Shown here piece after piece: positions 2,746 through 58,081 of a stretch of DNA of 64,000 nucleotides (within the stretch, counting starts at the first letter, position 1; each line of letters begins with the position of its first letter). Below the pieces are notes generated by a model. It ran no database searches and had not been told where the DNA came from. It saw only the letters and a program-made list of their open reading frames with translations. This stretch comes from a virus. The stretch is taken from IMG/VR virus record IMGVR_UViG_3300024346_000041, positions 1 to 64,000 of that record; one strand, 5' to 3'. A program made the translations under genes and the position numbers.

Positions 2746-2788
2746 TCGCAAGTTAAGGTACACTGTATATAGCCTGGAGGGCATAAGC

Positions 2789-14357: not shown

Positions 14358-16219
14358 GTGTTCCAGCCTGACATTCCTGATTCCATAGACTGCTCTCTAG
14401 TAACAGAGTACTTGTCCGTCTTAAAGTCAGGCCACCTTCCTGTCATGTGCCATAAACACAAAGCTCCAATGTTGACTGACTGGGCAAAGTCATCAGACAT
14501 GGCTGGGTTTCTCTGAATAGTGTAAATATCAGATCCAGCAGCTGTAGTTGTCTTGTTCTCGATTAAGGCTAAAAAGTCTTGAATAAGGCCAGGGTCTTCA
14601 GAGCTAACGTAATCGTAAGCAAAAAATCTTATCTTCTTAGTTCTAATAGCAGAGCACGTAGTAAGCAGGCTTCTAGTTTTATCAGCTCTGTAGTAAGGCC
14701 TAGGGTGAGTTGGAGAAGCCGGAACGTATGTAAACATACCTTTGCTAGCGGCCCTAACGTACTGCACCGGAAGAAGACTAGACGGCGATATACCCGACTG
14801 AACAAGAACTGTTTCTCTGACTACACCTGCTCCTGAGAAGTCATGAGTTATAAACTCGCATTTGTACATTCTGTAGATCTTTAGGCACTCTGCAGCTTCA
14901 GCCATGTGATCATGAGGTGTAAGCAGACGCTTAGCCCATATAACCTCTATTAGTCCAGTAGCTGTTATTCCCATTACAGCAAGAACGGTCAAGCTTACGC
15001 CCTTCTCACCGCCGCCACCCCAGTCAACTGCTAGTACTCGATGTGCATACTTTTTAAGCATGTCGTCTTTGCAATTAGTTGATGGGTCTCTAGGGTTGTT
15101 TTTAAGGTCTGGATTTGAAGCTGCTTGTAGTTCAAGCATGGACACAAGCTGTAAGCCTGCTCCAGAGCTTTCACCTAGTACTTCGTTTAAGAACTTCTCA
15201 TGCGTATAGTTTCCCATCCCTTCTCTCTTTGCATTCAACTCAGCCCACTTATCAGGTCGTGAGTAGTGAATATGCATAATTGGTTGCGGAATATGATAAC
15301 CAGCGTAGTTTAACCTTCTTTCAGGGTGTTTGTGAATCCATCTTCCATTTCTAGGATGAATAATAGCGAAGCATTTAGCACAGACTGTGCCGGGACGCTC
15401 TTCGCATATGTCAGCCCTAACCGGGCCAATCATGGCAATAAGGTCATGGTTAACAGATGAAACATTTAGATACTTGCAGGCGCTACAGGTTATACACCAC
15501 TCAGCCTGTGAAGATGACAGCCATTCTCTTTCAATGGTGTTATCAAGTGTCTTAGGGGTTCCAGCTAACTTCATAGTACCCCATTCGCTAGCTGACATGG
15601 TTTCACGGATAACTGGTATATGGTCACCATCCATATCCTGAACTTCGTCAATAACCACTTGATCAGCACGAATACCACGCACTCGGTCGGCGTCGAGTAA
15701 GGCAAACGAGAACTGCATCATGCTGTTGTTGCGAAAGCTTCGCTGCAAAACGCTGTTCTCTGTCTCTGGGCCTATCAATACTGATTTAACCGGAGACTGC
15801 TCTATAAAAGGGCGAACGTAGTTACTGGATAGGCGGCGCACCTGTTCAAACAAAGGAGTAATATAAAGGTTTCTAAAGTAAGGTATAGTGGCACAAGTTA
15901 TAACTCCATGCGCCGAGATAACCGTGCTTTTACCAACCTGACGCCCAGTCTTCAATATGGTGCGCCTAGGCATATAAACATTGAAGAGTGACTCAAATTG
16001 ATAGTGCTTTTCTAAGCTGTAAGGTTTACCATCGAGATTGAGTATTGCTGGTAGAATACAGGATAGGTTGGGAATACCTCCCTGTTTTATTCTGGCTACT
16101 ACTTCGTCTAGGCTCTTTTGGCTTTTAGAGGCTTTATCTGTTGGGTTTGGAGTACTAATCATGTTATACAGAATCTCTGAGAGGGTAGAGGACGAGTATG
16201 GTTCTGACGGATACAGCAT
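14354..16219 (-). CDS. terL: Terminase large subunit
   Basis: Walker A GRQVGKS, RVRGI, Walker B VVIDEVQD, coupling GTPKT, FLNEVLG, nuclease LAVDWG and C-terminal DDFAQS; true start may be 16162. Confidence 0.85.
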   Translation of the reverse strand: MLYPSEPYSSSTLSEILYNMISTPNPTDKASKSQKSLDEVVARIKQGGIPNLSCILPAILNLDGKPYSLEKHYQFESLFNVYMPRRTILKTGRQVGKSTVISAHGVITCATIPYFRNLYITPLFEQVRRLSSNYVRPFIEQSPVKSVLIGPETENSVLQRSFRNNSMMQFSFALLDADRVRGIRADQVVIDEVQDMDGDHIPVIRETMSASEWGTMKLAGTPKTLDNTIEREWLSSSQAEWCITCSACKYLNVSSVNHDLIAMIGPVRADICEERPGTVCAKCFAIIHPRNGRWIHKHPERRLNYAGYHIPQPIMHIHYSRPDKWAELNAKREGMGNYTHEKFLNEVLGESSGAGLQLVSMLELQAASNPDLKNNPRDPSTNCKDDMLKKYAHRVLAVDWGGGGEKGVSLTVLAVMGITATGLIEVIWAKRLLTPHDHMAEAAECLKIYRMYKCEFITHDFSGAGVVRETVLVQSGISPSSLLPVQYVRAASKGMFTYVPASPTHPRPYYRADKTRSLLTTCSAIRTKKIRFFAYDYVSSEDPGLIQDFLALIENKTTTAAGSDIYTIQRNPAMSDDFAQSVNIGALCLWHMTGRWPDFKTDKYSVTREQSMESGMSGWNT

Positions 16220-16295
16220 GGCTGATTCAATGGAGCCGATAGGCCTAGCCTGTCTTATAGCTCTATTGATGGTCTTAGCCTTCGCTGGATTCTAG
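16161..16295 (+). CDS. Small membrane-anchored peptide
   Basis: GGAG RBS before ATG 16161; hydrophobic C-terminus IGLACLIALLMVLAFAGF. Confidence 0.45.
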   Translation: MLYRISERVEDEYGSDGYSMADSMEPIGLACLIALLMVLAFAGF

Positions 16296-16350
16296 CCTTG
16301 TAAGCCCGTTAGGTACATACACTTACTTTAAAAAAAGAGGTAAAGTTTCA

Positions 16351-16560
16351 ATGGCAAACCGTTCACCTAAGAGGTTTTTAGAGCGTTCAGGATTGATTTC
16401 AACCCAAAGACTGCCAGCTAGTAGACTGGCACTTGGAAACTTAGCTTCCATGAATTATCCACTTAAGCCTCCTTACGATATAGAGCACAATCGACCTAAT
16501 GAAGGGTCGCCGCCTCCTGATAGAGGTATATCACGTGAATGGCCCTATGGAACTCTATAA
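16351..16560 (+). CDS. Hypothetical protein
   Basis: GAGG RBS; 69-aa ORF. Confidence 0.55.
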   Translation: MANRSPKRFLERSGLISTQRLPASRLALGNLASMNYPLKPPYDIEHNRPNEGSPPPDRGISREWPYGTL

Positions 16561-16856
16561 TAATAATGAGCTATAGATTGTACACTCCTGAAGACGATAA
16601 GGTAACAATAAGCTTTTGGGTAATAGCTGGCGGCCTAGTAGCTGCAGCTGCTCTAAAGTCTATGATTCCTATTTGTTTTAGCTTTGTTCTTTGTTACATA
16701 TTTTTACGAACCGATAGTAATATCAATGAGGGTAAGCCTTTCTGGGCGCCAGGGAAGTTTACTCGCCATCTTGACAGCTCCTATATAAGACTAACAAAAG
16801 GTCGATATAACGGTAGCGGCTATCATCGTAAGAGGAGATCTAAGAACAGGTATTAA
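16539..16856 (+). CDS. Hypothetical membrane protein
   Basis: Two hydrophobic segments; probable start about 16566. Confidence 0.6.
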   Translation: MALWNSIIIMSYRLYTPEDDKVTISFWVIAGGLVAAAALKSMIPICFSFVLCYIFLRTDSNINEGKPFWAPGKFTRHLDSSYIRLTKGRYNGSGYHRKRRSKNRY

Positions 16857-16922
16857 GGAGGACAGACCGATTCCAGCAATAAAGGATCGGTCTGTTATTT
16901 TACTAATCAAGGAAGTCCAAGC

Positions 16923-17495
16923 ATGAAGCTTGTAATAGTAGGATGTGGAAGAAGTGGAACGTCCGCTGTACACTCACAACTAAAAGCTGCTGGGTTCAAA
17001 ATAGGTCATGAAGTTTTACAGGAAGACGGAGGAATAGGTTGGCCTATGCTAATGAGTAGGCTCAAAAACATATGGCAGCCTTTAAACCCTACTGTGCTTC
17101 ATCAAGTTAGAGAGCCCTGGTCGGCTATATCTAGCCTAACCACTCACAAAATGTCTTTATGGAAAGCTGTGTCAAAAGAATCAGCTGGTTTATTAGAAAT
17201 AAAAAATAGCGCTCTAAGGGCAGCTATGTTTTGGATAAATTGGAACAAGCTGTGTATGCAGCTAACTGACAAGTTTTATAGAGTTGAGGACCTTAGGTCA
17301 AGCAGCAGCGAAGGTTACTACTTGCTTACAAGCGCATTAGCAATAAACAAACTACCTAAACCTACAAAAGTAAATTCAAGAAAGCATGCAAAATTAAAAA
17401 GAAACGACTTTGAAAAGTGGCCAAAAGTAGTAGAAGAAATAGATAATATGTCTCACTTATTTGGGTATTCTAGACTTGATAATTACTCTATATAG
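16923..17495 (+). CDS. Sulfotransferase-like protein
   Basis: VIVGCGRSGTS (5'-PSB-like), HQVREPWSAISS (3'-PB-like), YRVEDL, FGY. Confidence 0.65.
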   Translation: MKLVIVGCGRSGTSAVHSQLKAAGFKIGHEVLQEDGGIGWPMLMSRLKNIWQPLNPTVLHQVREPWSAISSLTTHKMSLWKAVSKESAGLLEIKNSALRAAMFWINWNKLCMQLTDKFYRVEDLRSSSSEGYYLLTSALAINKLPKPTKVNSRKHAKLKRNDFEKWPKVVEEIDNMSHLFGYSRLDNYSI

Positions 17496-17508
17496 CAAGG
17501 AGGCTAGA

Positions 17509-17838
17509 TTGATAGAAGCAATTATAACAACTTTAATAGTTGCATTAGCAAGCAAAGGAACTTTAGATGCTTGGTTTGATGGCACTATATTCTCTACAGC
17601 TAGAGCTCACGCTGAAGCTTGGAGAGAATCTAAATCAGCATACACATCATTGGCTGGAGAACTTTTATCTTGCCGATTTTGTCTTGGATACCACGTATCA
17701 TTTTGGATTACAGTTTTATGTTGCTTTAATGGCCTCAGCTTTATACTGTTACTGCCTGTGTGGTTGGCAAGTAGAGCTATTGAGCATGAATTAGAACTAG
17801 AGCTTAGGAGACGTAATGAGCGAAGAGATAATGATTAA
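17509..17838 (+). CDS. Membrane protein (DUF1360-like)
   Basis: GELLSCRFCLGYHVS motif, hydrophobic helices; AAGGAGG before TTG 17509. Confidence 0.6.
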   Translation: MIEAIITTLIVALASKGTLDAWFDGTIFSTARAHAEAWRESKSAYTSLAGELLSCRFCLGYHVSFWITVLCCFNGLSFILLLPVWLASRAIEHELELELRRRNERRDND

Positions 17839-18214
17839 ACAGTCGGAAGCAGTAAAAACAGTAAAGCTTAGACACGAAGAAGCTACTGATAGGTTTACTG
17901 AAGTTATAAATGAAGTGCTTGAAAACATTCCTGAAGTTAGATCTGTAGCTTTAGTAATAGACTGGTCAGTAGGGCAGGAACTATTTCCTTACGGAATAAT
18001 GATAGGAAGACGCGGGTCAGTAAATAGGCCTGATGAGCTTTATAGCTTGATGATACAAACAGCCAAGCTAGTAAGACACCAGTCCGATGTAATGGCCGGT
18101 ATATTGGCAGGGATGGATAAACTTGCTAGCGATTTAGCTTCGCAAATAACTAAACTTAAGAAAGAGCTAAATAACTCAGAAGCCCAACTAGAAGCTATGA
18201 AAGGCAAAGTTTAA
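17816..18214 (+). CDS. Hypothetical protein, C-terminal coiled coil
   Basis: AGGAG RBS; 132-aa ORF. Confidence 0.7.
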   Translation: MSEEIMIKQSEAVKTVKLRHEEATDRFTEVINEVLENIPEVRSVALVIDWSVGQELFPYGIMIGRRGSVNRPDELYSLMIQTAKLVRHQSDVMAGILAGMDKLASDLASQITKLKKELNNSEAQLEAMKGKV

Positions 18215-18215
18215 T

Positions 18216-18428
18216 ATGAAAAAAAGCAGGCAATTAAAGGCGGAAAGGGTTATACTACTTAGTAGCAGAAGGATGGCCTCTAGAATATTTAAGGTACAAC
18301 CAAGGGCCATGCCACTAAGCAAATTTAACGAAGACTTCTGTGAAAGGGTACGAGAGTTGTATGAAAGAAAATTCAAGATACCGGACAGGCTTGTAAGAGC
18401 CTACGACCTTGCAAGCCTAGTCCGGTAA
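18216..18428 (+). CDS. Hypothetical basic protein
   Basis: Abuts the previous gene. Confidence 0.55.
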   Translation: MKKSRQLKAERVILLSSRRMASRIFKVQPRAMPLSKFNEDFCERVRELYERKFKIPDRLVRAYDLASLVR

Positions 18429-18439
18429 GGAAGTGAGGC

Positions 18440-18604
18440 TTGAAAAGTGTCAAAATAGTCGGTGTTGAACTACTCAAGTTTAACAAATACTTAGTCATAC
18501 CGTCTTGTAAGCATTCCTTTGTGAATGATACAAGTGTAGTCAAACTAAAGGACGTGCCAGACCGCATAATGTGTTCTCGTTGCAAGTCTATTGATAAGCC
18601 CTGA
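18440..18604 (+). CDS. Small putative zinc-ribbon protein (54 aa, not in ORF track)
   Basis: TTG start after a purine-rich stretch; ...SCKH...CSRCK...TGA; fills the gap exactly. Confidence 0.5.
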   Translation: MKSVKIVGVELLKFNKYLVIPSCKHSFVNDTSVVKLKDVPDRIMCSRCKSIDKP

Positions 18605-18638
18605 TCGAAATCTTAGGCGGGTAACGATTAGGACATGC

Positions 18639-18669
18639 GCCGTGGCTCTCGTTGAGTCACGGCTTTTTT
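18639..18669 (+). terminator. Rho-independent terminator
   Basis: GCCGTGGCTC-TCGTT-GAGTCACGGC-TTTTTT. Confidence 0.8.
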
Positions 18670-18700
18670 CGTATCTACAGTTACTTAAAAGGAGCACATC

Positions 18701-19006
18701 ATGAAAAGTAAATCAGTTAAAGCTACTAACGAAAATACCTCTAGTAACAATGTTAAAACAATTACAGTTGACAATGCATCAATACTTAAAACAAAAACAG
18801 TATACGTTCTTGAAAAAAGTGACTTAGACGATTTAATGATAGCTTTAGTAAACTACGTTGAACTTAAAGAAGATATAACCAAAGGTAATTTAGCAATAAA
18901 GAAGTTTAGTATAGATATTACATACGAGCTAAATGGAGAGGTTAATATGAGACAAAGCTATGGAGCATCATCAAATAAAGATGCTTGGAGAAGACCAGCA
19001 TTATAA
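18701..19006 (+). CDS. Hypothetical protein, paralog of 19041..19490
   Basis: AAGGAG RBS; shares MKSKSVKA, D.DDLM.AL and AW.RP with the next gene. Confidence 0.7.
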   Translation: MKSKSVKATNENTSSNNVKTITVDNASILKTKTVYVLEKSDLDDLMIALVNYVELKEDITKGNLAIKKFSIDITYELNGEVNMRQSYGASSNKDAWRRPAL

Positions 19007-19040
19007 CTACTAACAAAAGTAAAACATTAAAGGAAAAACC

Positions 19041-19490
19041 ATGAAAAGCAAATCAGTAAAAGCTAAAAGTAAAGTAAAAGCTAAAAGCAAAATAGTTAAA
19101 ACAGTCAAGAAAACAAAAGTGCCAATCTCAGGTAATCCTCTTTACCTAAAGTTTGGCAGAGACATAGTAGAAATAGAAGGTAACAAACACGGAAAAATAG
19201 TTAGGAAAGAGTTACATATAGACGCTGATAAGATTAAAACAAAAAAAGACGGTAAGTACATTTACAATAGATACGACTACGACGATTTAATGGGAGCTCT
19301 AGCACGCATGGTAGCCATGTGTAACAGGCGACTTCCACTTGGTAACGATCCAATAGAGATCACAGACTTTTGTATTTCTGTAGCTTATAAGACTACAGAG
19401 GTTATGAAGCACCCTGACCTTAAAGATATGAGAGCTATGGTCAATGGATCACAAAGATTAGCTTGGTTAAGGCCTGGCGATAAGGAATAA
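19041..19490 (+). CDS. Hypothetical protein, paralog of 18701..19006
   Basis: AAGGA RBS; Lys-rich N-terminus; shared motifs. Confidence 0.7.
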   Translation: MKSKSVKAKSKVKAKSKIVKTVKKTKVPISGNPLYLKFGRDIVEIEGNKHGKIVRKELHIDADKIKTKKDGKYIYNRYDYDDLMGALARMVAMCNRRLPLGNDPIEITDFCISVAYKTTEVMKHPDLKDMRAMVNGSQRLAWLRPGDKE

Positions 19491-19581
19491 CATGAAGGGT
19501 TTACCGAGACCTTCATGTTGGTTTGGGAGCCCTTGGTGAGATAAGGGCAGCCCGTAGATAGGTTCTGCGGGCATCCCAAAC
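19489..19581 (+). ncRNA. Candidate structured RNA (hairpin + three-way junction)
   Basis: Four helices read directly from the intergenic sequence; see findings. Confidence 0.4.
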
Positions 19582-19605
19582 ATCTAACTTTTAACAAGGC
19601 TAAAC

Positions 19606-19770
19606 ATGATAGATAAAAAAAGTAAATGTAAATGCCCTAAGTGCAACAGGGTAGTTAAGAAGTTTCATCACTTAGCGTCGTACGCAGACAGGCTCTGCGC
19701 AAAATGCCTGGATAAACACGTCAACAAGGTTGGAAATTTTAAACCTATAAAGGAGGGTGACGATGAGTAA
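19606..19770 (+). CDS. Small zinc-finger protein (54 aa, not in ORF track)
   Basis: MIDKKSKCKCPKCNR...RLCAKCLDK; stop overlaps the next start. Confidence 0.6.
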   Translation: MIDKKSKCKCPKCNRVVKKFHHLASYADRLCAKCLDKHVNKVGNFKPIKEGDDE

Positions 19771-20080
19771 TAGCATAGAAGTTCCTGCTCGGGTCTCGTC
19801 TTATTTAACAAATACACTAAACAGAATGCCGTTCGAGCAGCTTCTCACCCTGTTCTTAAAGGGAGCATGCCGTCATACAGGCATACCTAATACTGGTGAA
19901 TTAAACCTTGAGCTTGAGGCAGTAAAGCTGGAGTGCATAGCACTAGATACATACAAATTTACATTTCGTGTAATACACGAATGCCCAGACGACAGAACGC
20001 ATTACGTGGTTGATAAAACCATAGAGGTCCTATCTGTAGCCGCTGCTGTATGGGGGCGTATAGGAGGTGGTCTACAATGA
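19763..20080 (+). CDS. Hypothetical protein
   Basis: AAGGAGG RBS. Confidence 0.65.
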   Translation: MSNSIEVPARVSSYLTNTLNRMPFEQLLTLFLKGACRHTGIPNTGELNLELEAVKLECIALDTYKFTFRVIHECPDDRTHYVVDKTIEVLSVAAAVWGRIGGGLQ

Positions 20081-20319
20081 CATGGAACCCTAGGCCTTCA
20101 GACATAGAGTGGACTCGTAACGTCATAGCTATGCTAAAAGAAGGTGGCTCTTGGGTTATTCCTATGACTGGTCAAACCTTTGTAAAACAAGGAGACAAGT
20201 TAATACTAATAGACTCAATGCCAACCGACTCTTACGGAGAAGAAGCTCAAGCTGATATGTTTCAAAAAGTTCTTGAGATCGGAAAACAATTAAACATAAA
20301 GGTAGAGAAACAAAAATGA
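20077..20319 (+). CDS. Hypothetical protein
   Basis: AGGAGG RBS; ATGA overlaps at both ends. Confidence 0.65.
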   Translation: MTWNPRPSDIEWTRNVIAMLKEGGSWVIPMTGQTFVKQGDKLILIDSMPTDSYGEEAQADMFQKVLEIGKQLNIKVEKQK

Positions 20320-20555
20320 CAGTCGACGAAGCAATAGAATTTATGCAAGAGTTAAAAACCCAAGGAAAGAAGCACATAATTGTAGGAGTTTGGACCGCAG
20401 ATCTCTTTGAAGTCAAGGATGACGACGCTTGGGGCGAAGTAGCTAAGGACATAGACGACAACGCTACTAGCTTATGGGATGATATGTTTTCAAACCTTCA
20501 GTTTGCAGTTGATAGCGCCTCTGAAGGCGTAACTGTTACACGAACAGAAGAATAA
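20316..20555 (+). CDS. Hypothetical protein
   Basis: ATGA coupling with the upstream gene. Confidence 0.65.
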   Translation: MTVDEAIEFMQELKTQGKKHIIVGVWTADLFEVKDDDAWGEVAKDIDDNATSLWDDMFSNLQFAVDSASEGVTVTRTEE

Positions 20556-20557
20556 AC

Positions 20558-21022
20558 ATGAACATCTTCGTGTTATCTGAGAATGTCAAGGAAGCAGCCG
20601 AGTGGCACGTAGATAGACACGTTGTAAAGATGCCTTTAGAGTCAGCACAGATGCTGTGCACAGCTTTAATAATAAACGGCTGCAATGACGTGGCATACAA
20701 GCCAGCTCACGTTAAGCATCCATGCACCTTGTGGGCTGCAGCAACTAGAAGTAACTTCGAGTGGCTGTGCAGGCTGGGTATAGAGTTATGCGCTGAATAC
20801 ACTTATAGGTACGGAAGAGAGCATGCTTCAGAGAAAGTAATACGTAGCTGCTATGAGAAGCATAGTAGCATACCTCCAGGTTCGTTGACTAGCTTTGCTC
20901 AAGCTATGCCCATAGAGTACAAAGGGGAGTGCGCTATAACGGCTTACAGGCTGTACTATGTTAAAGGTAAAAGCCACTTGGCTTCTTGGAAGCACAGAAG
21001 TAAGCCTGATTGGTTCTTGTAA
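20558..21022 (+). CDS. Pyrimidine-dimer DNA glycosylase/endonuclease V-like family protein
   Basis: MNIFVL..H.DRHVVKMPLESAQML, HPCTLW, EYTYRYG..H, FAQAMP, AYR.YY. Confidence 0.8.
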   Translation: MNIFVLSENVKEAAEWHVDRHVVKMPLESAQMLCTALIINGCNDVAYKPAHVKHPCTLWAAATRSNFEWLCRLGIELCAEYTYRYGREHASEKVIRSCYEKHSSIPPGSLTSFAQAMPIEYKGECAITAYRLYYVKGKSHLASWKHRSKPDWFL

Positions 21023-21038
21023 ACAAGAGGAGACTTAC

Positions 21039-21308
21039 ATGGAAGACCCATACAAGGATGAAATAGTAGCGAAAGCTGCTTCAAACAGCTTAAAAGTTCT
21101 AGATATGATAATGGAAATCATAAGAAAGGATAGAAAAGCAATAGAGTGCCCAGACTATCAAAGCTTTCTTAGAATGATTCATGATCCAAAATACGCACAT
21201 ATCAAGGAAGTATTAGATAAAACAAAAGCTGAAATAATTAAAAATGATTTAGATAGAAAAGAGCTAAAGAAAGAAATACTAAAGCAGAGAAACGACCTTA
21301 AACGATAA
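21039..21308 (+). CDS. Hypothetical protein
   Basis: GAGGAG before ATG 21039. Confidence 0.6.
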   Translation: MEDPYKDEIVAKAASNSLKVLDMIMEIIRKDRKAIECPDYQSFLRMIHDPKYAHIKEVLDKTKAEIIKNDLDRKELKKEILKQRNDLKR

Positions 21309-21342
21309 ACTACCAGTTTTAACACCAACCAAAGGAGATACA

Positions 21343-22005
21343 ATGAACGAGCCACAGTACGTAGTAGTAGAATATTATGAATCTGATAGAGGAGGTAAGC
21401 CTGGTGATAAAGGAAATAAGCTAGCTATTCATAGATTAGAAAATGGAGAAGTTGCAGCCGCTGAAGACGGCGCTCCTGAATCACAAGAAGAAGCTTTGAG
21501 AATGCTACAGGCCTTTCACAGGCCAATATACAAATCGATAGACGTTGCTAATGACGAGTGCGACAACGTTCTAGAGTATGCAGGCGATGGAGACGTCTCC
21601 ACTGACGAAGCTTTTAAAGAAGCTAAGTACGAAGTGGAAACCACTATACCCAACATGCTTATAGGTAACATACTAAAAAGCATTCCAACTGGAACTTATC
21701 ACAAGCTAGTCCTAGTGGAGTCTTCTAAGCTAAAGTGGTTTATGAAAATTGTTAGCTTCAGAAACTGCGGGGCAAAGGTAAGTGACGAGCTCAAAAGACT
21801 TGGAATGAAAGTTCCTGACCCTAAGTACTGGGTAGAGTGCTTTATATACAAAACCAAAGAAAAAGAAGAAGGCTTGGACTATGTAGGTAGCTGCTTAGTT
21901 GGCAAAGAGCTAACAGAACTGCATCTTAGTAAATACGCAGCTACAGGAGACGAGCTGTTTAATGACGAGCTATGGGAGGATAACCGTGCCAAAAGTAAAA
22001 ACTAA
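21343..22005 (+). CDS. Hypothetical protein
   Basis: AAGGAG RBS; 220 aa. Confidence 0.7.
   Translation: MNEPQYVVVEYYESDRGGKPGDKGNKLAIHRLENGEVAAAEDGAPESQEEALRMLQAFHRPIYKSIDVANDECDNVLEYAGDGDVSTDEAFKEAKYEVETTIPNMLIGNILKSIPTGTYHKLVLVESSKLKWFMKIVSFRNCGAKVSDELKRLGMKVPDPKYWVECFIYKTKEKEEGLDYVGSCLVGKELTELHLSKYAATGDELFNDELWEDNRAKSKN
21588..21601. repeat. Dispersed palindrome copy 3: TGGAGACGTCTCCA (14 bp)
   Basis: Inside a CDS, read as DGDVST (different frame from copies 1 and 2). Confidence 0.95.
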
Positions 22006-22069
22006 ACGTAGACCTAAAGTAAAGGTAAAACCATTAACTAGAATCAGGCGGCCCTCAAAGGCCGCCTGA
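21986..22069 (+). CDS. Very basic 27-aa peptide ending in a 10-bp GC hairpin
   Basis: GGAGG before GTG; VPKVKTKRRPKVKVKPLTRIRRPSKAA; TCAGGCGGCC-CTCAAA-GGCCGCCTGA at 22044-22069. Confidence 0.35.
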   Translation: MPKVKTKRRPKVKVKPLTRIRRPSKAA

Positions 22070-22088
22070 CTCATTGGAGGGTATTGTT

Positions 22089-22592
22089 ATGTTGACTAGA
22101 CTGATACTAGCTAGCGTAGTTGTATTGTTTGTATCTGCAAAACCAAGCAGTGCAGGCTGAGGCAGCTCAGCATCATCAGCCAGTTGGGCTGATAAAAAGT
22201 TGACGGTGGTTGACATAAGATACATGCAGATGCAGGTAGCATCTATAGATAAGTCTAATTCTAAGCCTATGGTAGAGCTAGCTATGAAGTCTGCTGACTT
22301 TAGAGTTAAGTCAGCTGGCTGCATACTTGCTAGAAAGTTTAAAGATGAATACCTAGAAGAGCTAATAGAGGCAGTAGCTGATGATAGCGAACTAGTTAGA
22401 CAGGCAAGCAGGGAAAGCTTGATAGTCTTGGCTGTATTATTAAACAATAATAAAAAGTCAGGGTCAGTAGATTTTGGCCCAATCCCTGGTGATAAAACAA
22501 TGGCTGGAGCTTGTGCCAGCCAGACCATGTGGAAAGCATGGTTTGCACAAAATAAAGATAAGTTAAACAAACAAAAATCAAAGGAGCAATAA
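22089..22592 (+). CDS. Exported HEAT-repeat-like protein with in-frame TGA at codon 24 (Sec/readthrough or pseudogene)
   Basis: GGAGG RBS, signal peptide MLTRLILASVVVLFVSAKPSSAG, TGA 22158-22160, same frame continues into ORF 22200..22592 (LIEAVADDSELVRQASRESL). Confidence 0.65.
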
Positions 22593-22808
22593 ATGAGCAA
22601 TATGAATGGAGACGTCCTATACAAGCAAACTCAACTGTCGAACAATCCGACAGTTGAGTACCCCTCGAAAGTCGAGCTTACAAAAAATACCAAAGGGTAC
22701 ACGTGGACTATCTGCCTCAGAGGCAACGATGGTAACGAGCAATCAATGATAAACCGTATGGAAGAACTTAATAAAGAAATGTTGGCTAAATTTAAAGGAG
22801 AGCAGTAA
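22593..22808 (+). CDS. Hypothetical protein
   Basis: AAGGAG RBS. Confidence 0.7.
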   Translation: MSNMNGDVLYKQTQLSNNPTVEYPSKVELTKNTKGYTWTICLRGNDGNEQSMINRMEELNKEMLAKFKGEQ

Positions 22809-22810
22809 CA

Positions 22811-25024
22811 ATGAAAACCAGAGAACATCTAGTCCAACACTTAGATAAGAAAACAGCTAGAAAATACGGTAAGCTACCTAATCCTGATTATCATTTTGAA
22901 GCAATAACTAAAGTTGACAAAGGCGCTTTAGAGCTTTTGAATAAGCTAGTGCACCTAAAGCCAGAAGAAGTTACAGACGATAACTCAAGATATTTAAGTT
23001 TGAGCTTTGGATCATACTTTAAAATAAATGAAGATGATGCTAGAGAAATAGTTAGCATGCCGTTTCCTGTCTACTTAACAGTGCGAAGTTGTACAAAAGA
23101 AGCTGCATTTATTATTATGGAAGCTAAAAGAGCAGCGGCAGCGCTGGCTCCTATTGATAGATCATACACTCTAAGCCTTCCACAAGAACGTATGCAAGAG
23201 CTTATCTTAGACGCTGTAAACTCAGGTCTTGAGAAAGACCTAGTTCCTTTTCTATACGATGAAGCTAGAGACACTCCTGTGTCTTCAAACTATTCGTCAT
23301 TTAGTGTGCCAGACTTAGAGTTTAAAGACGCAAATCTACTTGCAGCTTTAATAAGAATACAATATCCAAAACTAATAACGTCTACAATATTAGATTTAAA
23401 AGGAAATCATGACGATATTCAAGCAGATATTGATGACTACGACTTTAATACAATACTTACAAACCTTACAAAGGTAACTCCTGAAATATTAGCAGAAGCT
23501 ATGTTTATAATTATTAAACAGTATAGAAGGCTAAACCCTTCTCCAACTCCTAAGATGCTGCCAGTTAGCACTACGTCGTTGACCATACATAATAATTTAT
23601 CAAACATACCTCAGGCTCTTTATGATAAAGGAGCAAGTAGACTAGTAAGAACTAAACATGTGGCTGAACGTATAAAGAAAGTTATATCTTTTATGAAGCA
23701 CATGAATAAAATCATGGAAGATAAAGACAATGCTATGCCTGGATCGTATCACAACACATCTCCAAACTTTGATACGGTTCTTGCTGTAGAGCAAGGCAGT
23801 GTGCCTTACTCAGAAGACACTATTAACGAGATTATAAGCGTAAGCAAAAGCGGTATACGTATAAAAGGCGCGTCAAGAGCTTGCCAAAATAATGATACTA
23901 TGTTCAGCCCTGACGTAATATCACCAAGCACTATAAACTTAAGAAACCTAGACGTAATAAGAAAATACAGTGCAGAAACATCTGTACCTGTTTTTATGGA
24001 ATCTGTAGATACATCAGGAGTGGCAGATGCAGGCTTAAGCGAAGGCTTAAAAGGATTTGTAACTACCACACTTATTGCTCCTATTCTTAAAGTACAGCCT
24101 AACTCCTACATGACGTACAAAGATTACCAGTACGCTGACAGACATAGACAGACTGATAAGTTTAGAGAGCATTACTTTAAAATATCAGAAGCTAGTGGCA
24201 GGCGGTTTATGATTAAGCTAGCGCAAGGTATTCCTGTTAAATACGAAGATATCAATCCTATACTTGAAGCTGTAGAAGATATTGAGAACTTAGTACCAGG
24301 TAATATTTCTGATATACCTGAAAGAGCTAAGCTCGATGATGCTAATAGCTTAGATCTAGTTTGTGGATTCTTTAGAAAGCACACCGCTATGTCTGAAGAT
24401 GCAATTTACAACTTAGCTAAGGTAATACTGCTTCCTTGTAATCCTATTGGGTCTACGTTAACTTACGACACATACACAAGATATAGGCTGTCTAAGTACA
24501 TTATAGAGGCTACTGCAGGTGCGCTTGTTAATATAGTTATTCCAGCAACCTGCCCAATATCTAAGTCTTTGGTAAAAAGAATAAAGTACTTTAATGACAG
24601 GCCAGCTTGTTCTTTTTCACCAACAATAAGACATAGGTTTACTTTTAAGGGAAGCTGCCTATCGTACAGCCATCTAAACCCATATGACAAACAGTATGGA
24701 GACAGTAACAATAATAAGGCTATAGCAGCAGCTGAAGCTAAAAATCATAAGTATCTTTATGAACAAAATGGAGACATAACAGTTCCTTTTGTAGGATATG
24801 ACGTAAACGGAGTTCCAATTGTTAAAACTAAAGAATACTTAGATTTGTTTAGATCTACTGAAAATGGAAACTCAGTAGATATAAGCATATATGGTCACAA
24901 CCTTATAAAGTACGGAACAAGCTTTGGTGACGGGCTGTATCTAAGTATTATCAACTCAGATGAGACTTTAAAAGCATCTAAGGCGTTAGGAAAATCTCCA
25001 GTTCCTGCCGTTGCATCGGTTTAG
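22811..25024 (+). CDS. Large hypothetical protein (737 aa)
   Basis: Long ORF with AAGGAG upstream; no recognised motif. Confidence 0.75.
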   Translation: MKTREHLVQHLDKKTARKYGKLPNPDYHFEAITKVDKGALELLNKLVHLKPEEVTDDNSRYLSLSFGSYFKINEDDAREIVSMPFPVYLTVRSCTKEAAFIIMEAKRAAAALAPIDRSYTLSLPQERMQELILDAVNSGLEKDLVPFLYDEARDTPVSSNYSSFSVPDLEFKDANLLAALIRIQYPKLITSTILDLKGNHDDIQADIDDYDFNTILTNLTKVTPEILAEAMFIIIKQYRRLNPSPTPKMLPVSTTSLTIHNNLSNIPQALYDKGASRLVRTKHVAERIKKVISFMKHMNKIMEDKDNAMPGSYHNTSPNFDTVLAVEQGSVPYSEDTINEIISVSKSGIRIKGASRACQNNDTMFSPDVISPSTINLRNLDVIRKYSAETSVPVFMESVDTSGVADAGLSEGLKGFVTTTLIAPILKVQPNSYMTYKDYQYADRHRQTDKFREHYFKISEASGRRFMIKLAQGIPVKYEDINPILEAVEDIENLVPGNISDIPERAKLDDANSLDLVCGFFRKHTAMSEDAIYNLAKVILLPCNPIGSTLTYDTYTRYRLSKYIIEATAGALVNIVIPATCPISKSLVKRIKYFNDRPACSFSPTIRHRFTFKGSCLSYSHLNPYDKQYGDSNNNKAIAAAEAKNHKYLYEQNGDITVPFVGYDVNGVPIVKTKEYLDLFRSTENGNSVDISIYGHNLIKYGTSFGDGLYLSIINSDETLKASKALGKSPVPAVASV

Positions 25025-25032
25025 TAAATACA

Positions 25033-25060
25033 CACGGGCACCCTTTAACAGGCGCCCGTG
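25033..25060 (-). terminator. Hairpin terminator between convergent genes
   Basis: CACGGGCACC-N8-GGCGCCCGTG; mismatch is G-U on the - strand, followed by TGTATTT. Confidence 0.6.
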
Positions 25061-25079
25061 CATACAACCCAAACCCGAC

Positions 25080-25331
25080 TTAGGAGCACTTAGCTCTTGA
25101 TCTACTAAACAGCTTTCTTGTGTTTTTACCACAAGAGGAAGCTTTACAGGCCGGTGTCGATTCCTTAACAGTGGCTGCTGGTTTAACAGCCTCTACCTTC
25201 CTGGCTTCTACAACTGGGCTACTAGCTACAGAACAAGAGCCACCTGAGCAAGAAGACTGTCTTTTTGCAAAGACTCCGTCTACTGACTCGGAACCTAGAG
25301 CGATACTTGCAGCCACTACGAATTGAAACAT
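25080..25331 (-). CDS. Small secreted Cys/Ser-rich protein
   Basis: AGGAGG RBS, hydrophobic N-terminus, SSCSGGSC and CKASSC motifs; own promoter and terminator. Confidence 0.7.
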   Translation of the reverse strand: MFQFVVAASIALGSESVDGVFAKRQSSCSGGSCSVASSPVVEARKVEAVKPAATVKESTPACKASSCGKNTRKLFSRSRAKCS

Positions 25332-25376
25332 ACTAACCTCCTGTTAAATCTAACCGGCCCTGTTGCCGGAGATGAA

Positions 25377-25404
25377 AGTTTACAAATGTTAATAGGTTTG
25401 TCAA
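25377..25404 (-). promoter_or_regulatory. Sigma70-like promoter for 25080..25331
   Basis: TTGACA-N16-TAAACT on the - strand. Confidence 0.6.
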
Positions 25405-25509
25405 ATATACAAGAATAAAAATAGCTCATTTAAACTCATAAGTCTTTTAACATAAAGAGTTTAAAATTTAGATAAAATTAAGTTTTAACAACAAAATGAA
25501 AGGCAAGTT

Positions 25510-25755
25510 ATGAAAGACAAAAAAGAAATCGAGCAGTTAAGAGCTGAATACATTGAAGCAAAAATGGCAACAATGATAGACGATTGCGAAGGAGCCTCAG
25601 CTAATTCAGAAATGGCGTTTTATGCTGAAAAAGGATTAGAGATCGAATGCAATGGTCTTACCTTTGTAGAGCTAGAGGCACTTATGATTGAGCTCGCCGA
25701 GTTAAACGGTGAAGACGAGGACGATGAAGAAGACGAAGACGAAGAGTATGAATAA
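25510..25755 (+). CDS. Hypothetical acidic protein
   Basis: AAGG RBS; poly-Asp/Glu tail. Confidence 0.65.
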   Translation: MKDKKEIEQLRAEYIEAKMATMIDDCEGASANSEMAFYAEKGLEIECNGLTFVELEALMIELAELNGEDEDDEEDEDEEYE

Positions 25756-25790
25756 CTAAACTTAGTTTAAAAGTGTAACTGTATAAATAC

Positions 25791-25852
25791 TTTGTACAGT
25801 AGTTTGTACACGTTCCACTTAATTCACTATATTCTAAAGAATATAGTATTAT
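25791..25852 (+). repeat. 62-bp inverted repeat, left arm
   Basis: Exact reverse complement of 26253-26314. Confidence 0.97.
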
Positions 25853-25872
25853 ACTTTTTAAAGGACTAAACC

Positions 25873-26256
25873 ATGGCTTGTGTAAGATGTGTAGTTTTAA
25901 AAAATCATAAGGATAGGAGTGAAGCTGTAAGGTCACAACATTCAAAAATACCTCACTTTGTAAAAATGTCGTGTTCAAAGTTTCAAGTAGCTTTAGGTAA
26001 GCACCATGAATACGCAATAGATAGGGCTAAAGCACAGTTAACTGAAAAAGGTCTTAATCCTGATGATTTTGACTTTTTAAGTTTTGATTACGTAGAAGGC
26101 TACTTTATGAGAGATATGTTTGAGAGCAGTAACTTTGTAAAAATATGGAGAAATGCTGAATTGTTTAATATTAAACCTTTGGGACCATTTTCACCTTGGT
26201 TTTCCGATGGAGAAGAAGCTGACCAGTTTCCAAATGAATTAGAGTTAAATACATAA
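25873..26256 (+). CDS. Hypothetical protein enclosed by the 62-bp inverted repeats
   Basis: AAGGA RBS; stop TAA lies inside the right arm. Confidence 0.7.
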   Translation: MACVRCVVLKNHKDRSEAVRSQHSKIPHFVKMSCSKFQVALGKHHEYAIDRAKAQLTEKGLNPDDFDFLSFDYVEGYFMRDMFESSNFVKIWRNAELFNIKPLGPFSPWFSDGEEADQFPNELELNT

Positions 26257-26314
26257 TACTATATTCTTTAGAATATAGTGAATTAAGTGGAACGTGTACA
26301 AACTACTGTACAAA
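26253..26314 (-). repeat. 62-bp inverted repeat, right arm
   Basis: Exact reverse complement of 25791-25852. Confidence 0.97.
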
Positions 26315-26339
26315 ACAAAACCTCATTAAGGATTTTAAC

Positions 26340-26924
26340 ATGATAAAAGACCTAAGACTGAACTTGGACATGGATCAACTCACCGAACTTTTAAACAGTA
26401 TTGGTGATAAGGTTAACTTAAACATAGTACTTAGCCCTAGTAACAAAGCTAGGTTTAAATTAGGTAAGGTGGTTAGTCCAAATGAATTTAGAGATGACTT
26501 TAGCGATAACTTTGAAGAGCTAAACTTGCTAGATGTACAACGCGACGGGTGTAGTTTGAGCCTTCCAGCTGTTAAAGAGCCTAAGCTTAACAAACCTAAA
26601 AAGCGTAGGTTTGGAAAACACACTCGTATTACTAGGAAGCATTTAGAACTAAGGGACTCAATGAATATTGCGCATTATAGTGGAAGGCTTTCAGCTCCTA
26701 GCATGAGAGCTATATTAATTAAAGACTGCGATTTGTTTGATAAAAAGACAAAGAACTTTCTTACTGGGCTAGGTTACATAACTCTTGCTGACGTCACAAA
26801 GTCTACTGAGGCTTTGATTCTAGGGGCCTGCAGTAGTCTCAAATTCAGCGATTACGTCACTAAGACGGGTCTTGGCAGGGTTATTGAATGTTTAGAGAAA
26901 ATAGGTGTGTTTTTGAGAAAGTAG
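26340..26924 (+). CDS. Protein with C-terminal RNAP alpha-CTD-like domain
   Basis: IKDCDLFDKKTKNFLTGLGYITLADVTKSTEALIL...GLGRVIECLEKIGVFL follows the alpha-CTD pattern. Confidence 0.55.
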   Translation: MIKDLRLNLDMDQLTELLNSIGDKVNLNIVLSPSNKARFKLGKVVSPNEFRDDFSDNFEELNLLDVQRDGCSLSLPAVKEPKLNKPKKRRFGKHTRITRKHLELRDSMNIAHYSGRLSAPSMRAILIKDCDLFDKKTKNFLTGLGYITLADVTKSTEALILGACSSLKFSDYVTKTGLGRVIECLEKIGVFLRK

Positions 26925-26950
26925 TAGTTTTACTTTTAAAGGAGAAAGCC

Positions 26951-27271
26951 ATGGATGGACTAGCTACCTGTATTGCAACCGGATTAGTTGGATTTTCTAA
27001 TGATAAGGATCCGGTTGACTTTGTTAAGGACCATATTTTACGTAAAACTATACTTACAAATATTGACTTAGTGTTCAAAGATACAGCTAATGAAATAGTT
27101 TTATCAGCAACCGCTGATAACGGTAAGTTCTTTAGTTGTTGCATACAAACTCCTAAAGCTCCTGAACAGGAAGAGCTTCTCACAGGCTACATGTCTGAAT
27201 TAAGAAAGCAGTTCTGGGAAGCTATGCAAGAATGTGAGAACTTCGTAGCTGGTGAGAGCTTGCAGTGGTAA
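26951..27271 (+). CDS. Hypothetical protein
   Basis: AAGGAG before ATG 26951. Confidence 0.65.
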   Translation: MDGLATCIATGLVGFSNDKDPVDFVKDHILRKTILTNIDLVFKDTANEIVLSATADNGKFFSCCIQTPKAPEQEELLTGYMSELRKQFWEAMQECENFVAGESLQW

Positions 27272-27309
27272 AATTTAGGCTGACAAACTCTTACTTGGAG
27301 GTAAGTAGA

Positions 27310-27579
27310 ATGGCTATTGATCTAAATAAAGAAGACGAGCAGTTGGAGACGTCTCCAAAGCTTAGGAAAGAAGGTAAGGTTCAAATAGACAAGGTTATTA
27401 TTAATAACCTTTCTAAACTTGTTACCTACCCTGCTGGGTATATAAAGTCTGAAGCTATAAACGTTTATAGCGACAGGTGGCGGGTTAACATATGGACACT
27501 TGGCGATAACAACGCCAGAGTTGAAGGTTCTTGGTTTGTAGTAGCTGATCCTAAGGGCGCTGTAGTTTCTTTTAACTAG
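27310..27579 (+). CDS. Hypothetical protein
   Basis: GGAGG before ATG 27310. Confidence 0.65.
   Translation: MAIDLNKEDEQLETSPKLRKEGKVQIDKVIINNLSKLVTYPAGYIKSEAINVYSDRWRVNIWTLGDNNARVEGSWFVVADPKGAVVSFN
27343..27358. repeat. Dispersed palindrome copy 4: TTGGAGACGTCTCCAA (16 bp)
   Basis: Perfect palindrome inside a CDS (QLETSPK). Confidence 0.95.
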
Positions 27580-27586
27580 CGCTTTT

Positions 27587-27639
27587 AGTAAACGGTTTAC
27601 TGTCGTTTACTGCAGAGCTTGTTTAGTACGAGCTCTGCA
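27587..27639. terminator. Tandem intergenic hairpins upstream of the sigma factor gene
   Basis: AGTAAACG...CGTTTACT and TGCAGAGCTTGT-TTAGT-ACGAGCTCTGCA. Confidence 0.45.
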
Positions 27640-27676
27640 TATGTATTTAATTTAACTACATTTCTAGGATTAATTT

Positions 27677-28399
27677 ATGGCGGTTAGGCGCTCATCTGGT
27701 CTACGCAAAAAAACTAGCAAACATAACGATTTTGACTACTTTTGGAACAGACACCAAGGAACCGTTGCTTTGTTAGCGGCTACTTTAGTTAAAGATTGCG
27801 GTGGTCATGCAGCAGACTATATGGGCTCTATAGCCCTAACATTTAATACTTTTCTTATAGCTTCAAGAAAAAAAATAAAAAGATATAGTGATCTTAGCTT
27901 TAAGCATTCAGCATTTGCTTTTTGTATTTATTATGTAAAAGCTCATTTTGTAAGATACGACTCTGACCTTATGGCTTCTGAGTGGGTAAACTTTAAAAAT
28001 GGGTTAGGAAGCCGTAGTTTAAACTTGTCTAGTTTTAAAGAAAGTAAAGGAAAAAAAGTTAAAGTAACTACGCCTTCTGACTCTGTTATTAAAAATATAC
28101 GATGCAGAGAGGCTGAACTTAATTGGGCTTTAGGGTTTATTGAAGAAGCTGGCGGAATAGTTCCTATGTGGGAGCTAGTATCATCTAGGTTAACTGCTAG
28201 ATACAAACTGATAGTTAAATACAGATACATTCTTGAGATGACTTTTCAAGATATAGGAGACATCGTAGGCATATGCAGAGAACGCGTTCGTCAAGTAATT
28301 ATGAAGGCTTTAATTATTATTCGTAATACTTTAAGAAGTATTAATAATAAAGAATACCTTCATTTATTTCGAAAAGACAACGTAGGTTTTGAGTACTAA
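27677..28399 (+). CDS. Sigma-70 family RNA polymerase sigma factor-like protein
   Basis: Region 4 HTH: LTARYKLIVKYRY..EMTFQDIGDIVGICRERVRQVIMKAL. Confidence 0.75.
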   Translation: MAVRRSSGLRKKTSKHNDFDYFWNRHQGTVALLAATLVKDCGGHAADYMGSIALTFNTFLIASRKKIKRYSDLSFKHSAFAFCIYYVKAHFVRYDSDLMASEWVNFKNGLGSRSLNLSSFKESKGKKVKVTTPSDSVIKNIRCREAELNWALGFIEEAGGIVPMWELVSSRLTARYKLIVKYRYILEMTFQDIGDIVGICRERVRQVIMKALIIIRNTLRSINNKEYLHLFRKDNVGFEY

Positions 28400-28420
28400 C
28401 AAATCTTATTGAGGTTTATT

Positions 28421-28927
28421 ATGAGTGATTCAATTAGCATGCTTTTTGAAAAGATTCCTATGATCAAGAAGATGATAAAGGCAGTAATGGAAGCTAATGG
28501 CGAGCATCCTCCAGTATTTTTTACATCAGACGGTAAGAAGAAGATTGAAGCTAAGCCTGTGTTTTTTGCTAACGACCGTGATAAGGACGAAGTAATGGCT
28601 TCAATGAAAGTTAAAATACAAGACGGTTCTGTAAAAGAATATGTGTTTGTTGCTGAGAGCTGGTGCGTAGAGACTGATAAAGAAGAGACTTATAAAGATT
28701 ACGGATCTATATCTAAGCATCCATTAAAGAAAGAGATAATGCTTATGCAGTACTCTTCTCATAAAGAGGAGGTGCTGTACAAAGCGGCCATTATTAGGTC
28801 CAAAGGTGATAAGGTCTCACTAGGAGAATGGGAGACTTTTAGTACTAAATCTATTGATAAATTTGCCTCAAACAACACAGGCAGGTTTAACGATATGTTT
28901 GGAAAAGCCATGTCTGAGTTTAATTAA
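28421..28927 (+). CDS. Hypothetical protein
   Basis: GAGG before ATG 28421. Confidence 0.7.
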   Translation: MSDSISMLFEKIPMIKKMIKAVMEANGEHPPVFFTSDGKKKIEAKPVFFANDRDKDEVMASMKVKIQDGSVKEYVFVAESWCVETDKEETYKDYGSISKHPLKKEIMLMQYSSHKEEVLYKAAIIRSKGDKVSLGEWETFSTKSIDKFASNNTGRFNDMFGKAMSEFN

Positions 28928-28943
28928 AAAGAGAAGGCAGACA

Positions 28944-29741
28944 ATGGCAGCTAGCCTCATATCTAGGTTTTATAAAAGCTGTTTTTACTTAGAGTTATTT
29001 GCAACTGCAGCGCAGCACGGCATCAAAAGCCGTGCTGGCGTTATGTCAAAATTGCTGTACTTGAGAAGTAAAAAAACTAAAGCTTTTTTTAAGGTTTTTG
29101 AAAGACTACAAGATCTTAAGAAGCGTTATCCGTTTCTATGCCTTTCTTTGAGAAAGTGTACACTTCCTTCTTACCTTAGGTTTTCTAAAGACAAAGATAA
29201 GAAGACAGCTTACAGATGCAGTAAGATAAGGTATTGCCCATACTGCTGGAACAGGTCTATATGCAGGGCTTACAGGCGTATGACTAATAACCTATCTAAG
29301 GGCAGCGATAAGTATAAAGACTATGGCTTTTTTTACAGTGAAAAAGTTTCTTACATACCTGTAGGATCTAGCAGCAAGGTTATATCTGACAAAGGTTTAA
29401 GTATGTTTTCTCCAAGATGGAAAATGCGCGCTGCTACTCTTGCCGCTCACAAGGTCGCTGGAATAGCCGAAATGCTTATAGTTCACTCTCACTTATTAAA
29501 CGGAGATAGGGTTTACAAGCTTACGCTTAAGCAGGTAGCTTACTGCCACAAAGATTCTAAAACAGCTAAGTCGTCTTTGCATGCGTCTAAAAGATTTGGA
29601 AAAGCTGCTATTAATTTTTGTTGCTTTCCTGTATCGATGCTTTACGATGGCCCGCTAAGGTCTCTTAAGATAGATGAGTCTTTTAGGCGTAGAAGGTTGA
29701 TAAGGCAGTACGGATTGTTTTATTCAGCTGATGAACAATAG
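28944..29741 (+). CDS. Basic hypothetical protein with C-x5-CPYC motif
   Basis: ORF 28854..29741; RCSKIRYCPYCW. Confidence 0.6.
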   Translation: MAASLISRFYKSCFYLELFATAAQHGIKSRAGVMSKLLYLRSKKTKAFFKVFERLQDLKKRYPFLCLSLRKCTLPSYLRFSKDKDKKTAYRCSKIRYCPYCWNRSICRAYRRMTNNLSKGSDKYKDYGFFYSEKVSYIPVGSSSKVISDKGLSMFSPRWKMRAATLAAHKVAGIAEMLIVHSHLLNGDRVYKLTLKQVAYCHKDSKTAKSSLHASKRFGKAAINFCCFPVSMLYDGPLRSLKIDESFRRRRLIRQYGLFYSADEQ

Positions 29742-29788
29742 TCTATTTTTATAACCATACGTTGGTATTAAGAAAGGAATCTTACTCC

Positions 29789-31104: not shown

Positions 31105-31127
31105 GTTTTTCTTTCTAAGGATTTACA

Positions 31128-31943: not shown

Positions 31944-31953
31944 AAAGGTAGAC

Positions 31954-58078: not shown

Positions 58079-58081
58079 TTA

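Follow-up and report, generated by a model that had tools for sequence, protein, structure and literature searches.

A candidate selenoprotein gene in a bacteriophage and its Sec/Cys relatives in Planctomycetota

Selenocysteine (Sec) insertion is well understood in cells, and a few animal viruses bear selenoprotein genes. In fdhF of E. coli, the archetype of the bacterial selenoprotein genes, the SECIS has a GGUC loop. Other ways of decoding an in-frame stop codon are familiar from phages: UGA is the leakiest of the stop codons, and phage Q-beta is a known case of its being read through as Trp. Likewise, there are stop-recoded phages, in which TAG or TGA is reassigned genome-wide and which have suppressor tRNAs. 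For bacterial SECIS elements, a 2026 review gives a consensus with an apical loop of 3–9 nt, an upper stem of 4–16 bp, a G among the first two nucleotides of the loop with, as a rule, G or U after it, a distance of 16–37 nt between UGA and loop, and a minimum free energy of −7.5 kcal/mol or lower (PMC13188914). This review makes no mention of phages, viruses or Planctomycetes (PMC13188914). Among viruses, an in-ORF SECIS has been discussed for the fowlpox selenoprotein (PMC1802603). Our literature search found no published report of a bacteriophage-encoded selenoprotein.

Here, we describe a locus at positions 22089–22592 of a phage record from IMG/VR. The record comprises 75,404 bp, is estimated to be 36% complete and has a replication module with a DNA polymerase, a DnaB-like helicase and a UvsX-like recombinase; its first 64 kb are the stretch of DNA analyzed in this study, referred to as the window in the following. 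We consider it likely that the locus is one gene for an exported selenoprotein, with a UGA as the Sec codon and a SECIS of the bacterial type.

The layout of the gene, on the plus strand, is as the original prediction described it. A Shine-Dalgarno sequence, GGAGG (22076–22080), lies 8 nt 5' of an ATG at 22089, which opens a signal peptide of 23 codons (MLTRLILASVVVLFVSAKPSSAG, 22089–22157), directly followed by an in-frame TGA (22158–22160). The frame of this ATG stays open past the TGA (GSSASSASWADKKLTVVDIRYMQMQ...) until a TAA at 22590–22592, and the 143 residues encoded between the two stop codons (22161–22589) are predicted to form the mature exported protein, a HEAT-like helical-repeat protein. 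Signal peptidase I would likely cut at S-S-A|G, just 5' of the UGA, a site that we assigned from its small-x-small pattern. The downstream ORF, which starts at 22200, has no ribosome-binding site of its own: inspection of the sequence revealed no Shine-Dalgarno motif 5' of TTG 22200 or of ATG 22224/22230.

The region further upstream has features of its own. Just 5' of the ribosome-binding site, the window has a strong GC-rich hairpin (22043–22072, CAGGCGGCC..GGCCGCCUG, −23.3 kcal/mol), which is not followed by a T-run and overlaps a small Lys/Arg-rich ORF (21962–22069, MTSYGRITVPKVKTKRRPKVKVKPLTRIRRPSKAA). It is kept in the close phage relative L002 with differences in the loop only, and may have a role at the transcript end, in processing or in regulation. 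In the more distant phage relative L005, the 200 bp 5' of the gene (positions 1–200) are instead made of degenerate GGCNNG-like repeats (ggcgaggcgaggcatggc...), unlike the upstream region of the window.

An open frame across a stop codon could reflect a whole-genome stop reassignment, in which the phage or its host would decode TGA as Trp or Gly. Such recoded phages exist, and gene callers have apparently picked code 4 on the short contigs of some relatives. Stop-codon usage, however, contradicts this explanation, as the original prediction had anticipated from TGA serving as a normal stop in other genes: TGA terminates 11 of 68 long plus-strand ORFs, often in ATGA overlaps, and the TGA at 22158 is the only one in the 75-kb record that links a start led by a ribosome-binding site to an ORF without its own start. 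In L005, the copy of the gene itself ends at a TGA, and TGA therefore also terminates in that phage. Finally, no tRNA gene, including suppressor tRNAs, was found in the window, in G000 or in L002, a relative of 190 kb that is 92% complete. Stop usage, the count of in-frame TGAs and the tRNA search all speak against a reassignment of TGA as in code 4 or 25, which we regard as essentially excluded. Elsewhere in the window (57329–58990), two adjacent ORFs (57329–58078 and 58082–58990) lie in the same frame, separated by a TGA and one codon; these are probably ordinary neighbors, the second having its own ATG.

In the public databases, the seven homologs of the phage clade (P0001–P0007) are annotated as proteins of 120–136 residues that begin at internal Met codons. 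At the DNA level, the same TGA is found in L002 and in L003, an IMG/VR contig of 82 kb that, like the 190-kb IMG/VR contig of L002, encodes a protein with 92% amino acid identity, as well as in L005, which comes from a different metagenome, shares 65% amino acid identity and reads AAGGAG-ATG MTRFMILITVLVALSSPDLSKAG-TGA-GSNNSSASWADKKITKTDIGYMRIH. In the L005 leader, 14 of 23 residues are changed, yet it retains 23 codons and its hydrophobic character and ends with S-K-A-G. Past the UGA, the first 25 codons of the window and L005 align without an indel, with 7, 5 and 12 nucleotide differences at the first, second and third codon positions, and the other two frames are closed across them; between the window and L002, the stretch 22161–22223 shows two synonymous and no replacement changes. 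These comparisons indicate coding constraint on the sequence 3' of the UGA, in the same frame as the leader.

A lone in-frame stop looks like a fresh nonsense mutation, and a recent TGC/TGT>TGA change was among the options that the original prediction considered. Decay of the gene through such a mutation, or an error in sequencing or assembly, is nevertheless very improbable, because the same TGA is found in four independent assemblies from several metagenomes, across a divergence down to 65% amino acid identity, and also in bacterial genomes, and because purifying selection is apparent on both sides of it.

The same comparison bears on the possibility that the locus yields two products, a 23-residue hydrophobic leader terminated by the UGA and a cytoplasmic HEAT-like protein, for which ribosomes would reinitiate, or start by coupling, at TTG 22200 or ATG 22224/22230. 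All the public gene calls of the clade begin at an internal Met, and the window, L002 and L005 all have an in-frame ATG 22 codons past the UGA, as such an arrangement would have it. Yet L005 lacks the TTG of codon 14 and the GTG of codon 16, no start is conserved among these three within the first 21 codons, and the ATG at codon 22 is the first that they share. The peptide SASWADKK, which is conserved in the coding stretch before this ATG (22161–22223), therefore requires decoding of the UGA. In-frame conservation of these 21 codons equals that of the remaining protein and is free of indels, and no internal start has a Shine-Dalgarno sequence. Moreover, in nine bacterial genomes described below, the leader is likewise in the same frame and still looks like a signal peptide, and in relatives with Cys instead of the UGA, one uninterrupted ORF includes the signal peptide. 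We consider separate products quite unlikely and return to the reading as a single selenoprotein gene.

This reading calls for a SECIS 3' of the UGA. The original prediction pointed to a 9-bp stem at 22163–22191, which can indeed form (22163–22171/22183–22191, −11.3 kcal/mol) but is not conserved, with 4 of its 9 pairs in L005. A second hairpin (22175–22193), mutually exclusive with the first, is conserved: its stem (22175–22181/22187–22193) and loop (22182–22186) read AUCAGCC-AGUUG-GGCUGAU in the window and AUCUGCC-AGUUG-GGCGGAU in L005. Here, two synonymous substitutions turn an A-U pair into U-G, a compensatory change whose support amounts to one pair, and part of the sequence conservation could be due to the conserved peptide SASWADKK. 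With a 5-nt loop that has G-U at positions 2–3, a stem of 7 bp, a distance of 21 nt between UGA and loop and −9.6 kcal/mol, the hairpin agrees with the bacterial SECIS consensus in all four constraints.

For a wider view of the family, we searched 1.84 billion representative proteins with a sequence profile, which yielded 60 relatives at E ≤ 0.001. A first profile scan of genome contigs (alignment A4) gave no match; a scan of genomes with Cys-form proteins led to L006 in a metagenome-assembled genome (MAG) titled Gemmataceae bacterium (G003) and L007 in an uncultured Planctomycetota MAG. We then searched 201 genomes of the family of G003 with the phage-clade profile, read the matches in six frames and marked each TGA. 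Nine of these genomes have a signal peptide followed by an in-frame TGA (u) at the homologous place: G118 (..KAYGWG-u-NDNIRF), G069, G051 and G174 (..G/A-u-GPRGC, e.g. ..RLRAG-u-GPRGC), G012 (..SRAY-u-MSC), G122 and G146 (..TRGG-u-G), and G145 and G160 (..SAEAG-u-GQTNM). In six other genomes, the search found Cys forms, with ..A[QH]-C-xHGG after the signal peptide.

Altogether, Cys forms were verified in the DNA at L006/L008, L007/L009, L011, L012, L013 and L019 (..AQ-C-xHGG) and at L042 (C-VNGN-C). GC-rich relatives have the motif ..A-Q-C-x-H-G-G directly 3' of the signal peptide, and other relatives have a C-x4-C motif after it, such as C-LNGN-C, C-NAPN-C, C-VNGN-C or C-RNGQ-C, to which the u-GPRG-C of the bacterial UGA forms L020, L025 and L027 corresponds. 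Sec and Cys were matched in position by how far they lie from where the signal peptide ends and by the C-x4-C motif, the N-terminal region being otherwise unalignable. Across the DNA-verified relatives with this architecture, the codon is TGA in 12 (L002/L003, L005 and the nine bacterial genomes among them) and a Cys codon in seven, and never TGG or another sense codon. The homolog alignment, in which a conserved TGA or Cys was to speak for Sec, thereby supports the original prediction. In contrast to the u-x4-C forms of bacteria, the protein of the phage clade lacks a partner Cys close by, and it has no redox fold.

L042 is itself a viral locus (IMGVR_UViG_3300027782_000025, 275 kb, positions 2490–3090), with a signal peptide and no TGA. 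As this Cys form stands beside the UGA phages, the family is present in several large phages in Sec and Cys versions, the former as read here. The L042 phage comes from the same freshwater metagenome as L002. Neither megablast nor tblastn detected relatives in the phage collection, and scans of viral contigs with P0099, P0018 and P0081 detected none either.

The bacterial homologs are surrounded by housekeeping genes, for instance for isocitrate dehydrogenase, dienelactone hydrolase or a methyltransferase, with no gene neighborhood conserved between them, and the contig of G118 has no further similarity to the phage. The bacterial copies are therefore chromosomal and not part of prophages. The family was previously unannotated, occurs in Sec and Cys versions and is common in the family of the MAG titled Gemmataceae.

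The residues around the Sec/Cys position and the signal peptides themselves vary within the family. The original prediction had described the site as a lipobox-like Cys position, which did not withstand the comparison: at position −1, the Cys forms have Q and L023 has Y, the residues at position −3 include S, K, Y, D, R, E and H, and with L025 as the only DNA-verified member to have L, V or I at −3, we rejected a lipoprotein lipobox ([LVI][ASTVI][GAS]-C). Several of the GC-rich Cys forms among L006–L013 begin with MSxRRQFxLL, which resembles a Tat (twin-arginine) signal, and others have RW or HR there, whereas the signal peptide of the phage protein is of the plain Sec type.

Across the family, the hairpins 3' of the UGA vary in loop type. 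All 12 UGA-bearing sequences conform to the bacterial SECIS consensus, which is permissive. The loop is GGUC in the GPRGC clade, where an A-U pair is swapped for G-C between members, of the GCAG-GUC type in G118, G145 and G160, AGUU in G012, UGGG or UUGG in G122 and G146, and AGUUG in the phages; the phage loop differs from the GGUC of most bacterial members and of selD, and a similar AGUU is found only in L023. Under a strict definition (an uninterrupted stem of ≥5 bp, a 3–6-nt loop containing GU and a spacing of 16–37 nt), a hairpin is present in five of the six independent lineages. The background in the phage genome is 7.4% of positions and 7.3% of UGA triplets, or 1.6% for stems of ≥7 bp, and binomial arithmetic from these figures puts the chance of five in six lineages at ~1e-5.

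As a positive control, we used selD of G118, G174 and G122, which has its known internal UGA (..SCAG-u-AGK), followed by the hairpins GCAG-GUC, CUCAG-GUC and CGCAG-GUC, the same loop type as in the family hairpins of L010 and L017/L018. At these loci (G118:C80, G174:C29 and G122:C28; L043–L045), SelD is thus a selenoprotein in its own right, and the GCAG-GUC-type SECIS lies 33 nt after the UGA. With TGA or Cys in all the DNA-verified relatives and a SECIS-conformant hairpin 3' of every TGA, Sec insertion, which the original prediction named beside programmed readthrough and a recent nonsense mutation, has gained support.

Protein databases seem to tell a different story, as Trp stands at the position of the phage TGA, after the signal peptide, in proteins of four related clusters with a low-GC appearance: P0016 (..AKAG-W-ASNNNS), P0018 (..LQAG-W-KDNNN), P0027 (..SSAG-W-ANNQC) and P0021 (..LKAE-W-GDKPC). 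Full-length forms with Trp, however, are found only on contigs of ≤5.4 kb, and in the same 90% clusters, N-truncated counterparts that match them over the shared C-terminal region sit on contigs of 20–91 kb (P0092 vs P0099, letter for letter; P0084 vs P0018; P0102 vs P0103). In P0021 and P0027, the Trp occupies the place of the first Cys of C-x4-C. Because the Trp forms are confined to short contigs and their truncated twins to long ones, the simplest explanation, drawn from the protein records, is that the Trp stems from code-4 gene calls of a TGA. Public databases thus seem to hold code-4 translations beside N-truncated code-11 calls, which is a trap for tests of Sec/Cys alternation in protein databases.

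These records matter for a further explanation, in which no SECIS is involved and a near-cognate tRNA for Trp, Cys or Arg occasionally decodes the leaky UGA, giving mostly the 23-residue peptide and little exported full-length protein. Trp at the homologous position would be its natural trace, and the conservation of frame and signal peptide would fit any mechanism of readthrough; the Trp records initially led us to favor readthrough as Trp. We set it aside in view of the short-contig pattern, the C-x4-C alignment and the codons of the DNA-verified relatives, all of which are TGA or Cys and none TGG. Readthrough would also leave unexplained why Sec and Cys alternate and why SECIS-type hairpins occur at the right distance in six lineages. 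Overall, it appears unlikely.

Sec insertion, in turn, depends on a dedicated machinery, which the bacterial carriers possess. Among the 201 genomes of the family of G003, selB scores above the curated cut-off in 168, including all nine UGA carriers; with selB so nearly universal, an association between the machinery and the UGA form is uninformative and we discarded it as a line of evidence. A tRNA-Sec at or above the Rfam cut-off of 47 bits is present in eight of the nine carriers, with 66.7–72 bits in six, 49.6 in G012 and 50.2 in G146, and that of G051 scores just under it (45.1 bits). Of five carriers tested, four have selA and all have selD, which contains an internal UGA in three (G118, G174 and G122). 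In G118, selA adjoins selB on a 283-kb contig. By contrast, no tRNA, tRNA-Sec, selB or selD is present in the phage records, among them the 190-kb relative that is 92% complete, which would leave the phage dependent on its host.

Which host this might be is suggested by G118, which has the closest bacterial homolog (42% identity, blastp 5e-32) and a genomic GC content of 0.39–0.44, compared with about 0.40 in the phage. Low-GC members of the family of G003 are a reasonable guess on these grounds, and the family of the MAG titled Gemmataceae bacterium (Planctomycetota) is the likely source of the gene and host lineage. At the DNA level, a comparison of window positions 12001–32000 with the 201 genomes turned up nothing beyond short matches, all of them to an acidic repeat. 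This Asp/Glu repeat (25706–25755, in the ORF 25510–25755) has low-complexity DNA matches in about 90 genomes of the family of G003, which we rejected as a host link, given their shortness and low complexity.

For the protein, AlphaFold2 predicts six helices with a pLDDT of 89.9 (alignment of 39 sequences), preceded by a disordered N-terminal tail formed by the first ~10 residues after the UGA. Matches in Foldseek are weak and HEAT/alphaRep-like, the best with E = 0.06. Likewise, the window protein scores 17.9 bits against the Pfam family HEAT_2 (PF13646), for which the cut-off is 27.7, and 16 of 39 relatives match it at E ≤ 0.01. A protein atlas returned HEAT-like clusters, several of which come most often from Planctomycetota; neither the structure search nor the atlas gave a functional lead. 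Small-x-small motifs precede the Sec/Cys position (SSA|G, SKA|G, AHA|Q, LRA|G) and suggest that signal peptidase I would cut one or two residues before it. At the same place, relatives have tails rich in Cys, His or Met (QC-xHGGHHHH, C-x4-C, MMQKKEMMMK...DCCGMM), and because of these we hazard a guess, with low confidence, that the tail might be a redox-active or soft-metal-binding Se/S tail, carried on a helical scaffold and acting in the cell envelope.

From the observed conservation of the UGA, its Cys counterparts, the agreement of the hairpins with the SECIS consensus and the Sec machinery of the bacterial carriers, we infer that Sec is in fact inserted. In the mechanism that we propose, translation would start at ATG 22089 and produce the signal peptide. 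At UGA 22158, the ribosome would meet host SelB carrying Sec-tRNA(Sec), recruited by the mRNA hairpin at 22175–22193, which would act as an in-frame SECIS of the bacterial type. Sec would be inserted and translation would proceed to the TAA at 22590. Upon export, the signal peptide would be cleaved, probably after S-S-A, so that Sec would stand approximately second in a flexible tail at the N-terminus, borne on a compact domain of HEAT-like helices. From the phage would come only the gene and its SECIS, and from the host selA, selB, selC and selD. That all these elements come together in a phage gene, i.e. a UGA with a bacterial-type SECIS, use of the SelB pathway of the host, and an exported product whose mature chain starts with Sec, seems reasonably probable to us.

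If this is true, phages are able to exploit the Sec machinery of their hosts, and whether a full-length protein or a 23-residue peptide is made depends on the selenium status of the host. It would also mean that gene callers systematically shorten such genes, given that every public call of the clade begins 3' of the UGA. Furthermore, the gene would represent a new family of exported selenoproteins, with Sec unusually placed at the mature N-terminus, and its bacterial homologs would reveal that Planctomycetota have a Sec/Cys family of exported, HEAT-like proteins that has gone unannotated. The gene would also provide a simple test system for the compatibility of SECIS and SelB between phage and host.

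Among the known systems, stop-recoded phages resemble this locus in having an in-frame stop within a phage gene, but here it is a single site in a genome that otherwise uses TGA as a stop and has no suppressor tRNA. With the coat/A1 gene of Q-beta, it shares an in-frame UGA in a phage gene and a longer product made by decoding the stop; in Q-beta, however, no downstream hairpin is needed and Trp is inserted, whereas here the UGA is followed by a SECIS-type hairpin and the relatives have Cys, not Trp. The glutathione peroxidase homologs of fowlpox and molluscum contagiosum viruses are, likewise, viral selenoprotein genes that use the Sec machinery of the host, but they depend on a eukaryotic SECIS and SBP2 and belong to a known, host-captured enzyme family, while the phage gene would depend on bacterial SelB and belongs to an unannotated family. 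The closest parallel is found in the bacterial selenoprotein genes, of which fdhF of E. coli is the archetype: the locus has a UGA in frame, followed at a distance of 21 nt by a hairpin that has an upper stem of 7 bp and a 5-nt loop with G-U as second and third nucleotides (for the SECIS consensus, see PMC13188914), and Cys homologs. Bacterial carriers of the family, moreover, have selA, selB, selD and tRNA-Sec. Most of their family members share the GGUC loop with fdhF and, as verified here, with selD of the same genomes. Unlike bacterial selenoprotein genes, the phage gene resides in a carrier without its own Sec machinery, has the loop AGUUG rather than GGUC, and encodes an exported HEAT-like repeat protein, not a recognizable oxidoreductase, with the putative Sec about two residues into the mature chain. 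In short, the proposed mechanism is familiar, and the novelty lies in its carrier, a bacteriophage, and in the exported HEAT-like family with an N-terminal Sec, which public gene calls leave unannotated.
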